In this document: positions 27,443-33,575 of the stretch, in pieces | How positions within the stretch are numbered: the stretch's first letter is position 1 | Layout of the letters: every line of letters starts with the position of its first letter | DNA from: an uncultured Candidatus Peribacteria bacterium | GTDB lineage: Bacteria; Patescibacteriota; Gracilibacteria; Peribacterales; Peribacteraceae | Assembly (NCBI GenBank): GCA_964643805.1 | Contig: CAZXUD010000001.1 | Span: forward strand, 9,147-42,721 | Direction of reading: 5' to 3' | Length of the DNA: 33,575 nucleotides | The notes under the pieces: generated by a model | The model's database searches: none | Told to the model about the DNA's origin: nothing | Seen by the model: only the letters and a program-made list of their open reading frames with translations | Position numbers and translations under genes: made by a program

Positions 27443-30427
27443 TTAACTCTTCCTCTTCTTCCGTCTCATTAATCCGAAGCCTGCAGCTGCGCCAGCTGCG
27501 CCAAAGACAATGATTTCTGGTCCAGTACTGCTGAGCGGACTGCCTGATGGTTGATTGAAGGCGCCAACAGGAACGTTGCCACCTGGACCTCCAGCATTGT
27601 TGCCGAAGATAAAGCCGCCATTAGTGCCTTGTAACCATGAAGAAGCGGCACCATGTCCATCGGCTGCGCTGCCTGAAACATAACGACCATTCACCATAAC
27701 TTCTCGTTGGCACAGCCGCGTGCAACCGTCGCCATTAATGTAGTTATGGTCGTCGCATTGCTCACCAGGATCCAACACGCCATCGCCACAGGCACCACGA
27801 GAACAATCTAGCCGACAAGCAGCACCCGGAGCATTGGAATTCCATTCGCCTAAGTCACAGTGCTCCCCAGGATTTTGTAGGCCGTCGCCACAATTCGGCA
27901 GGATGTATCGACCTTGTTCCGAACAAGCGTACGGAGCATTTGTGTTGTTTGCAGCTGGGTCACATTGCTCACCCAAAGCTCGTTGTACAACGCCATCTCC
28001 TAAACTCCCCTGCTCAAAGAAACACGTGGCAGCGCAGCCATCTTGGTCAAAGAAGTTACCGTCGTCACATTCTTCGCCTGCGTTCGTTTGGCCATTGCCG
28101 CAAGTGAAGACACCCAGAACAAGTGACGTTTCTATACGACAGTTATGTGCGCAACCGTCACCAAACAATTGGTTACCGTCGTCGCACTGTTCACCAAAGG
28201 TAAGAATGCGATCACCACAGTACGGTTCTCTACCCGCTTCCAAAATACAAGATGTGCTGCAGCCGTCGTTATTGTTAGCATTTCCGTCGTCACATTGTTC
28301 AATGGCAGAAAGCACGCGGTTGCCACAGTAACCACCGGCACCACCATACCCACCCTGGCCACCTACTCCGCCAATACCACCAATTCCGCCTTGGCCGCCT
28401 ATATTTCCAATGCCTCCTATACCGCCTTGGCCGCCAATTCCTCCTTGGGTACCAGCAACCGTACCACCAGCATTTGTTCCCCCGATTGTTCCTCCAGCAA
28501 GAGTTCCACCATTGGTTCCACTATTGCCACCGCTTTGACCCGCCGTACCACCAACTCCTCCCACCCCACCCTGACCACCCATACCTGCAGTTCCGCCAGT
28601 TGTTCCACTAATACCACCACCAGTATTCCCCGATACACCTCCCCCTTGGCCACTAATTCCGCCTTGGCCGCCCACTCCGCCGATGCCACCTTGGCCGCCG
28701 ATACCTCCACCAGTATCTGGGCTACCAAAACCTTCGATAGTGCATGATGCATTACAACCATCACCCGAGAGTGTGTTGTTGTCGTCACATTGTTCCGGAA
28801 TATCGACAATTCCATCGCCACAGAAAGCAAATCCACCAGGACCACCGGGCCCGCCGCCAATACCACCGATGCCACCTTGCCCACCGATTGCACCAGAAAT
28901 TCCTGCTCCACCGATACCAGCGACACCGCCTTGCGTTCCCCCGATAGTACCAGCCACGGTTCCTCCACCAATGGTTCCACCTGCAAGGGTGCCACCATTT
29001 GTCCCACTGATACCACCAGCTTGACCTGCATTACCACCAATACCGGACGTGCCGCCCTGGGTCCCACCTAGTGTTCCAGAAAACGTACCTCCGATTGTTC
29101 CTCCGATAGTTGTTCCACCATTCGTTCCAGTGTTGCTTCCACCCGTAGTTCCTGAAATAGATCCTCCACCAGTGGTGCCTGCAGTACCTCCATTTGTTCC
29201 GCTGACACTTCCACCAGTTGTGCCAGAAACAGAACCGCCATTTGTACCAGACGTTGAACCCCCCGTTGTTCCAACAGTTCCCCCATTCGTTCCACTCACA
29301 CCTCCACCAGTGGTACCAGAAACAGAACCTCCTCCAGTTGTACCTGCAATAGCGCCAGCGGTTCCCCCGCCAGTATTAGCAGCAGGGTGTGAATCGCCGG
29401 TAGTACCGGCAACACCACCTTGTGTTCCACCAGTTGTAGAGCCTCCTAATTCAGACAAACAATTTGCAGAACAGCCATCACCCGAAGCGCTATTACCATC
29501 ATCACACTGTTCTCCTACCTGCTTAATACCATCTCCGCATATATATAAGGTAGGGCCGCCTCCAGACAATGTCCCTCCACCTCCTGTCGTATTGGTAGAT
29601 CCCGGTTGTTCACTGACACACGTGCTAGAACAACCATCTCCAGATTGATTGTCACCGTCATCACATTGCTCCCCTGGTTGAAGAATGCCATTACCACAAA
29701 TAGTGGCCCCACCACCTCCCGTCGTTCCTCCTGTCGTTCCAGCCGTACCACCGGTAGTACCCGCTGTTGAGCCACCAGTAGTTCCACCCGTTGTACCCGC
29801 CGTACCCCCTGTCGTTCCTCCCGTAGTTCCCCCGGTTGTTCCTGCTATACCTCCGGCTGTTCCGCCTGTTGTGCCTCCCGTTGTACCTGCTGTACCACCT
29901 GTCGTTCCTCCTGTCGTATTTCCACCGGGTGATGAACTTTGACCACCGGGGTTTTGGTTTTGGCAGGTGTTAGAACAATTGTCATTGTTATTGGAGTTAC
30001 CGTCATCACATTGTTCTCCATCTTGTACTATGGCGTTGCCACAACGTGGTCCCATGACACAGGTTTCACAAGCCACCGGCGATCCACAGAAGTTCGTCCA
30101 CCCATTCTGTTGATGCAACGTGCTTTGGTACGATGATTCAAAGAAAGCTAAACCCTGATCGGTCGACATTTGTTCCGTGGCAAACATTGCCTGCAAAAAT
30201 GTATTGAGTTCGGTATGCAAGCCAGCCTCGTCAAATGCGTAGACCTCGTCTAAGCAACAATACACAGATTTTTGGCCAGTTACTGGGTCCGGCGTGACTT
30301 GGTCACACATGCCGACATCCAAACCAATAACGTCACCGCTGAGCACATCACTCTGTAGTAAACCGACAATAACAGCCAGAGCCAGAACTACGAGAACAAC
30401 ACCGGCGTGACGTTTGGCAAAAGCCAT
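27443..30427 (-). CDS. Giant secreted cysteine-rich-repeat protein (10 DUF4215-like repeats, about 420 aa of GGx glycine-rich tracts, C-terminal sorting-signal-like tail)
   Basis: Start at ATG 30427 ([26 protein letters not shown], a signal peptide or anchor). The ORF-track start at 30547 overlaps the upstream gene. Ten repeats of the form CG(D/N)G-x5-(G)E(Q/E)CDDGN-x3-(G)DGC-x3-C. The tail is [30 protein letters not shown]. Confidence 0.85.
   Translation of the reverse strand: [994 protein letters not shown]
28328..29950 (-). repeat. Degenerate in-frame GGx (Gly/Thr/Ile/Gln/Ser) low-complexity coding tracts
   Basis: Three main tracts: about 29699-29950 (GGTTGGTAGTT...), 28823-29449 ([13 protein letters not shown]...[18 protein letters not shown]) and 28328-28732 ([17 protein letters not shown]...GGYGGAGGY). 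They are separated by single Cys-rich repeats. The plus strand here is strongly C-rich and G-poor. Confidence 0.9.
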
Positions 30428-30482
30428 GATGGGAATAGTGTACAAAAAGGAATTGGCATTGGATATAGGTTCTTGTGAGAGC

Positions 30483-33400: not shown

Positions 33401-33575
33401 CTCCACTTGGACAATCGCTGTCTTCTTCACATTCAATGACACACTGGTTGCTGCAGCCATCACCAGAGGCGGTATTACCGTCATCACATCCTTCTGTACC
33501 CTCGCGCGTGCCGTTGCCACAGAGTGGGTTACAGCTAGCTTCGGTTGGGTCACATGGTGCTACCTCGCGATGACA
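30483..33575 (-). CDS. Giant cysteine-rich-repeat surface protein, paralogue of the downstream gene; 5' end beyond the window (at least 1030 aa)
   Basis: The ORF-track start at 32867 is an internal TTG (Leu). Hand translation of the same frame stays open with the same Cys-rich repeat pattern from 32868 to 33575 (...[38 protein letters not shown]...). The tail is [29 protein letters not shown]. Confidence 0.85.
   Translation of the reverse strand, partial: [1030 protein letters not shown]
31581..33368 (-). repeat. Four tandem ~127-132-aa (~390 nt) composite Cys-rich coding repeats
   Basis: Units start at 33368, 32987, 32591 and 32198. Each unit comprises a DUF4215-like repeat, EFCGD(G)xxQ, CDNGSxC, DCRT(N/D)ADCRxC, RC(A/G)GDPNGxxC and (T/S)YxCxY. 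They are diverged at the DNA level. Confidence 0.8.

Follow-up and report, generated by a model that had tools for sequence, protein, structure and literature searches.

A conserved pair of cysteine-rich repeat genes from an uncultured Peribacteria bacterium: a probable surface fibre pair with a possible role in attachment

Bacteria of the Candidatus Peribacteria, within the candidate phyla radiation (CPR), encode large and often very cysteine-rich proteins, most of them with predicted signal peptides. Weak similarity of these proteins to Myxococcus repeats and to pappalysin was described in 2016, and a role in attachment was proposed (Anantharaman et al., PMC4736985; here and below we draw on the passages of its text and supplementary tables found by keyword). 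According to these passages, Peribacteria genomes carry one disulfide-bond protein and sortase-like genes (two in Ca. P. riflensis), and the published strains differ mainly by insertions and deletions in twelve proteins, seven of them very large. The table for Ca. P. riflensis includes the genes _482 (1,752 aa), _483 (695 aa), _484 (TPM-type) and _485 (LemA), with _482 among the Cys-rich proteins (PMC4736985). MdbA-like thiol-disulfide oxidoreductases, VKOR and sortases are enriched in CPR bacteria (Méheust et al. 2019, PMC6744442). A DUF4215 protein has moreover been identified by proteomics in the adhesive trails of diatoms. Here we report on two adjacent genes, gene 1 and gene 2, built from cysteine-rich repeats of the DUF4215 type, which fill positions 27443-33575 of a 33,575-nt stretch of DNA from an uncultured Candidatus Peribacteria bacterium (assembly GCA_964643805.1, contig CAZXUD010000001.1). 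This stretch is called the window below, and all coordinates refer to it.

It is very probable that the two genes encode a surface-anchored pair of fibres. For the whole chain, in which a conserved cell-surface fibre pair of a Peribacteria-type (CPR) bacterium attaches the cell to a partner, we put the chances at about even. The evidence that carries these readings is the family membership and modular layout of the two proteins, the conservation of both the pair and its C-terminal tail, and the disulfide-oxidoreductase gene found beside the pair in relatives. The attachment hypothesis itself is not new, as it was published in 2016 for the Cys-rich proteins of Peribacteria, and the window pair is a further, well-documented example. 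What is added here is a conserved six-Cys head, a rare 12-Cys expanded repeat, a repeat unit resembling PAPP-A and ADAM proteins, a TGP-type tail, and DsbA-like and MurJ neighbours. A preliminary interpretation made from the DNA and its translations (the sequence-only reading) had already proposed that the locus mediates attachment; this is a reasonable reading, supported here as an interpretation, which agrees with the published hypothesis and is less novel than was implied. Its description of the two genes was borne out wherever it could be checked.

Two genes built from one repeat family

Both genes lie on the minus strand, and the gap of 55 nt between them that the sequence-only reading gave was confirmed. 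Their layout is as follows.

27443..30427, minus strand: gene 1, complete coding sequence with ATG at 30427 and stop at 27443-27445; 994 aa, 44 Cys (4.4%)
30428..30482, minus strand: intergenic spacer, 55 nt, from the gene 2 stop to the gene 1 start
30483..33575, minus strand: gene 2, stop at 30483-30485, frame open to the window edge; at least 1,030 aa, 115 Cys (11%)

Of the two, gene 1 is the shorter and bears the head; gene 2 is the giant, of which the 3' part is visible here, its 5' end lying beyond the window. A scan for promoters and terminators gave no such site in the 55-nt spacer, and the total for the locus was not above the shuffled expectation; thus, the two genes are probably cotranscribed.

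Membership of the repeat family is clear for both proteins. In hidden Markov model (HMM) searches, PF13948 (DUF4215) scored 167.5 bits in gene 1 (E 7e-50) and 222.9 bits in gene 2 (E 4e-67) against a cut-off of 27 bits, and TIGR02232 scored 283.4 bits (E 2e-86) and 349.2 bits (E 6e-107), respectively, against a cut-off of 20.8. The assignment to these two families, which had been made from the motif, is therefore far above both thresholds. Gene 1 contains 9 copies and gene 2 contains 12 copies of the 13-residue core CG(N/D)x3-x-x-x-E-x-C-D, where shuffling at constant composition gives about 0.001, and the full 27-aa pattern CG(D/N)G-x5-GE(Q/E)CDDGN-x3-GDGC-x3-C has 7 and 11 matches, respectively. 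The repeat counts first put forward, 10 for gene 1 and at least 12 for gene 2, hold when variant units are added to the 9 and 12 cores.

Gene 1 is divided into the following parts.

30353..30427, minus strand: N-terminal segment, aa 1-25, as read from the sequence basic at first and then hydrophobic over about 17 residues
30044..30352, minus strand: head, aa 26-128 (103 aa), with six invariant Cys
28328..30043, minus strand: stalk, with four canonical 27-aa repeats at aa 129-155, 244-270, 297-323 and 536-562
29699-29962, 29540-29617, 28823-29458 and 28328-28741, minus strand: four Cys-free, Gly/Thr-rich spacers, 31-53% Gly
27710..28327, minus strand: base, aa 701-906, six contiguous repeats (three canonical, two variant, one canonical), 22 Cys
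27530..27709, minus strand: linker between base and tail, aa 907-966, Cys-free, Gly/Ser-rich, 60 aa
27446..27529, minus strand: C-terminal tail, aa 967-994, TGP, 17 small or hydrophobic residues with GxxxG, and a basic cluster

This is the architecture that had been outlined before: a hydrophobic segment at the N-terminus, Cys-rich modules set apart by low-complexity stretches, and at the C-terminus a hydrophobic anchor that ends in basic residues. The N-terminal segment is a putative signal peptide or signal anchor, and an equivalent hydrophobic N-terminus is present in every gene-1 orthologue and in every giant orthologue. A lipoprotein, as in the 'putative lipoprotein' of P. riflensis, was considered for gene 1 and rejected: the first Cys is residue 41, past the hydrophobic segment, and it is preceded by V-G-M, with no lipobox.

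The head, described earlier as a unique Cys-containing region of about 105 aa, has 103 aa and six Cys and gave no match in Pfam, NCBIfam or the PDB; only the adjoining repeat matches Pfam. In an alignment of 13 head sequences, 14 positions are invariant, six of them Cys (C16, T25, G26, C32, C33, L34, D35, F71, H80, W85, C89, G90, C95 and C98), and identity to the window protein is 32-50%. The four spacers of gene 1 add up to 464 aa, or 47% of the protein. Their DNA contains degenerate tandem repeats only (periods of 18-45 nt, 62-80% matches), and orthologue spacers at these places differ in composition, being acidic or Pro/Ser-rich. The Cys count is even in every segment (head 6, each of the four stalk repeats 4, base 22) and so would allow all of them to pair in disulfides. 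The 60-aa linker could span the wall, if Gram-positive surface proteins are taken as the analogy.

The visible part of gene 2 has a different display region on a base and tail of the same kind.

31797..33368, minus strand: composite module, four copies of about 130 aa, each a canonical repeat plus an expanded repeat
32988-33368, 32592-32987, 32199-32591 and 31797-32198, minus strand: the composite module copies, aa 70-196, 197-328, 329-459 and 460-593
31581..31796, minus strand: six-Cys linker (aa 594-624) and 41-aa Gly/Thr spacer (aa 625-665)
30738..31580, minus strand: two canonical repeats and then the base, aa 666-946, colinear with the gene 1 base
30567-30737, minus strand: linker, Cys-free, Gly/Pro-rich, 57 aa
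30486-30566, minus strand: C-terminal tail of the TGP type

The larger composite module that had been noticed in gene 2 is thus real and occurs four times. In its expanded repeat a Cys-rich insert of about 75 aa takes the place of the second half; 12 Cys are conserved, and the motifs DCRxC and RCxxDPNG are present. This expanded module is rare, as 21 clusters out of 1.84 billion representatives match it (E <= 0.001), and 10 of the 21 carry the same C-terminal tail. A search of the PDB gave no relative of it, and an AlphaFold2 model of the composite module, made from a 4-sequence alignment of the internal copies, was unusable (pLDDT, the predicted local distance difference test, of 35). In the region of the six-Cys linker, gene 2 also has a weak, sub-threshold match to Dicty_CTDC (17.6 bits against a cut-off of 27 bits).

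The base of gene 2 is its best-conserved part among giant orthologues, with 68% identity to the base of the giant at locus L006. In alignment with this closest giant, the visible N-terminal part falls at aa 1409-1813, so that well over 1,000 aa are probably missing from the window; the full size of gene 2 is estimated from orthologues alone. The C-terminal parts of gene 1 and gene 2 are colinear, with 51% identity over about 310 aa (BLASTP, E 2e-112) and 51-54% over roughly the last 300 aa, which bears out the earlier description of the two ends as colinear paralogues, and all the protein strings quoted in its support are present.

The gene 1 base was modelled with AlphaFold2 from a 39-sequence alignment, with a mean pLDDT of 82 and a predicted template modelling score of 0.48. 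The predicted structure is confident for each unit and loose in the geometry between units, as expected for beads on a string. One unit of the base superposes on human PAPP-A (about residues 865-898) with a root-mean-square deviation of about 1 A, 60-63% identity and a Foldseek probability of 0.99. Across the cryo-electron microscopy entries 7UFG, 8A7D, 8D8O and 7Y5N, the PAPP-A matches have deviations of 0.9-1.5 A, 57-63% identity and probabilities of 0.90-0.99. A profile search with the base likewise gave PAPP-A (E 2e-4), with ADAM17 as a weak match (E 0.0098). A protease function, which the label 'pappalysin' might suggest, was rejected, since the proteins have neither an HExxH motif nor a protease domain and the similarity is limited to one 35-residue repeat.

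All 21 units are spaced like calcium site II of the ADAM proteins and snake venom metalloproteases (SVMPs), XCGN(X)3EXGEXCD, with N/D, E and D invariant. The fourth ligand position is an oxygen donor in every one of the 21 units, and the second is variable (E, D, Q, N, S or T). In ADAM proteins the ion at site II has a structural role: it lies buried and makes a disulfide-rich arm stiffer (PMC4885070). Foldseek also gave weak matches to ADAM17, VAP1, VAP2 and bothropasin (E 0.09-3, 35-72 columns). The Pfam Disintegrin model (PF00200) had no match, even at E <= 10; the likeness of the units to the ADAM disintegrin segment is a resemblance in mechanism only. Judging from the motif, each canonical unit would hold one structural calcium ion and two disulfides.

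Conservation of the pair and of its tail

A scan with the gene-1 head over one reference genome per species gave ten loci, all ten from Candidatus Peribacteria/Peregrinibacteria (CPR); the gene-1 orthologues are P0016, P0073 and those at loci L005-L014. Every related locus that has enough context shows a giant and, next on the same strand, a head-bearing paralogue of about 600-780 aa. Thus, the survey of related genomes that had been proposed found the tandem pair again wherever the context sufficed. The giants of relatives have 1,822 to about 3,100 aa and 133-266 Cys, and the tail is present on both members of the pair. Orthologues from independent assemblies match both window genes colinearly, at 48-68% identity. 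An episymbiont with a reduced genome, as had been guessed, fits the origin of the ten head loci. The window has the synteny of HD phosphohydrolase, class I LysRS and L3 in common with Ca. P. riflensis.

Over the last 300 aa, giants are 55-65% identical to one another and 38-58% identical to their own partners. As giants are closer across genomes than to their own partners, the duplication is old and predates the divergence of the genomes, and the short paralogue evolves faster. Concerted evolution of the two bases was rejected on the same values.

The gene order in most relatives is MurJ (minus), Thioredoxin_4/DsbA-like (minus), giant (plus), short paralogue (plus), TPM (minus) and LemA (minus). 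In six related loci the giant is divergent from a Thioredoxin_4/DsbA-like gene that adjoins MurJ. In the window and at L004, L006 and L021, the pair adjoins HD phosphohydrolase or LysRS genes and not TPM and LemA. The HD-LysRS pairing is found at L004 and L021 and in Ca. P. riflensis; at L006 only the HD gene was detected. The order of HD phosphohydrolase, class I LysRS and L3 corresponds to genes _2, _3 and _6 of Ca. Peribacter riflensis, as listed in the tables seen.

The tails of the window proteins read PLSSTGP (gene 1) and PVGDTGP (gene 2), each followed by 17 small or hydrophobic residues and then RRK(K/R)RK. Among 48 relatives the motif is (T/S)GP, with AGP in one, and 17 small or hydrophobic residues precede the basic cluster; this spacing is fixed in all but two tails, for which the motif taken was an earlier copy. 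In a 24-tail alignment (A9) the G-P, the GxxxG and an R are invariant. The layout of LPXTG-type signals is present in part, with a hydrophobic helix and a basic end directly after the motif, and the relative P0025 passes the LPXTG_anchor model TIGR01167 (16.2 bits against a cut-off of 15.9). For MYXO-CTERM (TIGR03901 / TIGR03382) no match was listed for gene 1, and gene 2 reached 10 bits against a cut-off of 15.85, with no Cys in either tail; relatives scored 17.1-18.5 bits against a cut-off of 20. For PEP-CTERM (TIGR02595, cut-off 16 bits) there was no PEP motif and no match of a window tail, and relatives scored 13.7-15 bits. The tail was also below the cut-offs of the IPTL-CTERM and GVDTG-CTERM models, and the window tails passed no curated sorting-signal model, LPXTG_anchor being the nearest.

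Tails of this kind are not confined to the pair. A (T/S)GP motif, helix and RRKR are also found on the large DUF4215 proteins P0017, P0062, P0083, P0087, P0094, P0107, P0109 and P0113, and some tailed DUF4215 relatives carry Kelch or FG-GAP/VCBS domains. Some tails read VAETGPG, VAQTGPG or VVKTGPG, nearer to LAXTG-type sortase motifs. On a metagenome contig, a 419-aa RTX protein (HemolysinCabind, L019:10430-11689) lies directly downstream of a 2,286-aa TGP-tailed giant. In the tables of Ca. P. riflensis, as far as seen, a 628-aa protein with a weak pappalysin match adjoins a 408-aa putative sortase on the same strand (_349 / _350), and this is the only sortase adjacency seen for this class of protein.

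A more ambitious interpretation may be considered here. The tail, written as (T/S)GP, eight residues, GxxxG, an aromatic residue and RRKR, could be an uncatalogued sorting signal of CPR/Peregrinibacteria, read by a dedicated sortase-like or intramembrane enzyme and marking a regulon of calcium- and disulfide-stabilised surface proteins, with the pair forming one heteromeric host-attachment organelle. We regard this as speculative and rather doubtful.

Proposed mechanism and competing explanations

In the mechanism that we propose, each protein would be exported by Sec through its N-terminal hydrophobic segment. Outside the cell it would fold into a chain of beads. Two disulfides, probably introduced by an MdbA/DsbA-like thioredoxin, would lock each canonical 27-aa bead, which would probably also hold one calcium ion in the CG(N/D)x3-x-x-x-E-x-CD loop. 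The proteins would be retained in the envelope by a dedicated C-terminal signal, consisting of TGP, the 17-residue Gly/Ala-rich GxxxG helix and RRKR, and the Cys-free linker of about 60 aa before this signal could cross the cell wall. The signal may be kept as a membrane anchor, or it may be cut at T-G by a sortase-like enzyme and the protein joined to the wall. The two proteins have in common the six-repeat base, which would be proximal to the membrane, and they differ in the parts that would be displayed: for gene 1 the head (103 aa, six Cys), borne on a stalk that consists of repeats and long Gly/Thr spacers, and for gene 2 the array of 12-Cys modules. The most likely role would be the attachment of a metabolically dependent cell to a partner cell or surface, in which the head and the module array would make the contacts and the repeats and spacers would set the reach.

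Several points weigh against this proposal. To our knowledge, DUF4215 does not have a known function in any organism. Calcium binding is suggested by the motif and by ADAM/SVMP fold matches that are weak (Foldseek E 0.09-3). With TIGR01167 the window tails score just under the cut-off of 15.9 bits (15.6 for gene 1 and 14.9 for gene 2), and of the LPXTG pentapeptide (or LAXTG, NPXTG) only T-G is common to the tail, the L and P positions not being conserved in the 48 tails. No sortase gene was seen in the window. Eight tail loci were obtained by a tail-based scan of metagenome contigs, and a Pfam scan of ten neighbours of tail-bearing genes at four of the eight (L015-L017 and L019) gave no sortase; these ten are unrelated genes (amine oxidase, RecJ, RTX protein, DinB-type polymerase, PRTase). 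Finally, the head is fairly conserved, at 32-51% identity across the class, and the neighbours in most relatives belong to envelope biogenesis, which fits a housekeeping envelope role as well as adhesion.

Indeed, the competing explanation that survives best, to which we give a modest chance, is that the pair is a structural envelope component, that is, a housekeeping scaffold such as a wall-associated lattice or spacer layer, with no binding outside the cell. Conservation and synteny of the pair extend across the class, in most relatives it has MurJ and a DsbA-like gene as neighbours, the base of the giants is well conserved (55-65% over the last 300 aa) and the head is conserved instead of hypervariable. 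Moreover, the window encodes an SLH-domain protein, which suggests that the organism builds wall-anchored layers. However, spacer length and composition vary widely among orthologues, from 464 aa of Gly/Thr here to acidic or Pro/Ser-rich stretches elsewhere, the length of the giants ranges from 1,822 to about 3,100 aa, and the strain differences published for Peribacteria, in the passages seen, are indels in twelve proteins, seven of them very large. Such plasticity is seen more typically in proteins that face outward than in a lattice.

It is improbable, in our view, that the proteins are a double-paralogue membrane receptor, in which the tail helix would stay uncleaved, its GxxxG would pair the two paralogues as a heterodimer and recognition would be of the like-binds-like type, as for TraA. 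The GxxxG is invariant in the tail, tail and base are common to both members of every pair, and TraA follows the same overall logic (PMC3325183). On the other hand, no PA14 domain and no TIGR04201 repeat were detected, the tail is without the invariant Cys of MYXO-CTERM and scores under its cut-off, nothing is known of social behaviour in CPR bacteria, and the recognition domains of TraA are hypervariable, which the gene 1 head is not.

Much less probable still is an extracellular store of calcium or other metal, or a shield, in which the acidic Cys-rich units would serve mainly to bind divalent cations, or else to protect the cell, and would have no specific ligand. Although the 21 acidic units have the spacing of ADAM calcium site II and NCBIfam names the unit 'cysteine-rich acidic repeat', the ions at the ADAM site are buried, structural and not exchangeable (PMC4885070), and a store would leave the conserved head, the special modules and the paired architecture unexplained. 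An assembly artefact or decaying genes, such as a chimera of collapsed repeats or a pseudogene, can be practically dismissed: the window does end within gene 2 and the locus is repetitive at the protein level, but both frames are uninterrupted (2,982 nt in gene 1 and 3,093 nt in gene 2), the DNA repeats are only 60-79% identical (longest pair 224 nt at 73%) and therefore old, which makes their collapse in assembly unlikely, and colinear orthologues exist in independent assemblies.

The attachment of CPR bacteria to other cells is a central unsolved problem that concerns a very large share of bacterial diversity, and we know of no cultured representative of the Peribacteria. The locus offers a concrete, conserved two-gene target, whose small head, rare 12-Cys module, repeat unit with a solved counterpart in PAPP-A and invariant tail can each be expressed, modelled and sought in metaproteomes, and the tail could serve as a search key for the whole surface proteome of the lineage. 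The gain is one of resolution and testability and not a new category.

The remainder of the window contains a ribosomal-protein cluster (L3, L4, L2 ... S5, L15, SecY, Adk, Map, IF-1, S13, S11, S4, RpoA, L17, L13, S9), as well as DprA, a histidine kinase, class I LysRS and the HD phosphohydrolase. The sequence-only reading had stated that the window has no secretion genes, which does not hold, as SecY is encoded at 11044-12327 within this cluster. Two further genes are inserted in the cluster, between S5 (14569-15216) and L15 (12337-12792), where no L30 was seen:

12905-14002, plus strand: 365-aa protein with two SLH domains and a CAP/SCP domain
13999-14511, minus strand: DJ-1/PfpI protein

The GC content is 0.42-0.44 over about 24-27 kb and about 0.52 elsewhere in the window. 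This low-GC stretch (24000-27438) contains the class I (archaeal-type) LysRS (25248-26837) and the HD phosphohydrolase (26839-27438). Between L3 and LysRS, at 23907-25117, there are three small open reading frames (139, 148 and 93 aa) without a Pfam match; the Ca. P. riflensis tables, as far as seen, have different genes at this position, namely a 481-aa hypothetical protein and a ZIP transporter. The GC skew is strongly negative over 28000-30000 (-0.34, -0.27), because of the Gly codons of the gene 1 spacers (GGN on the coding minus strand), and a replication signal was accordingly rejected as its cause.

Comparison with known systems

The closest described counterpart of the window pair is _482/_483 of Ca. 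P. riflensis, which belongs to the same lineage and has the same layout of giant and short paralogue, with neighbours as in loci L007-L012, the likeness being one of synteny and length. The similarity to pappalysin and Myxococcus repeats and the proposed attachment role, as reported for the Cys-rich proteins of Ca. P. riflensis in the passages seen, are common to the window pair. The differences are that gene 1 is about 300 aa longer than _483, owing to its Gly/Thr spacers, and that the window pair stands beside HD phosphohydrolase and class I LysRS, whereas _482/_483 are listed beside TPM and LemA. Neither the head nor the expanded module, tail motif or calcium-site spacing appears in the keyword-found passages of the text and supplementary tables of PMC4736985.

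The repeat unit itself is the one found in the DUF4215/TIGR02232 proteins of Myxococcota, where thousands of multi-repeat secreted proteins match. These join the repeats to Kelch, PA14, FG-GAP, P_proprotein and other domains, often with a MYXO-CTERM end; unlike them, the window pair is marked by a head specific to Peribacteria, by the rare expanded module and by the TGP tail. Human PAPP-A has a single copy of the repeat inside a metalloprotease, whereas the window proteins have from 10 to more than 17 copies and neither an HExxH nor a protease domain. The disintegrin-like 'shoulder' (Ds) of ADAM proteins and P-III SVMPs is a rigid arm stabilised by disulfides and calcium, with the same spacing as the window units (PMC4885070); the second half of the window unit is different, and its calcium binding is putative.

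In design, the pair is comparable with TraA of Myxococcus xanthus, which follows the same logic of an N-terminal recognition domain, a rigid Cys-rich stalk and a C-terminal tag made of a helix and an Arg-rich end (PMC3325183). TraA has a PA14 head, TIGR04201 repeats and MYXO-CTERM, none of which HMM scans detected in gene 1 or gene 2; the window pair has TIGR02232 repeats and no invariant tail Cys, and the organism has no outer membrane. With the LPXTG substrates of Gram-positive bacteria the pair has in common the succession of motif, hydrophobic helix and basic end, the position of T-G at the membrane interface and a Cys-free, Gly/Pro-rich linker before the motif. The pentapeptide of the window tail is of the form x-x-x-T-G-P, and its helix is strongly conserved (GxxxG, W), which is unusual for LPXTG signals.

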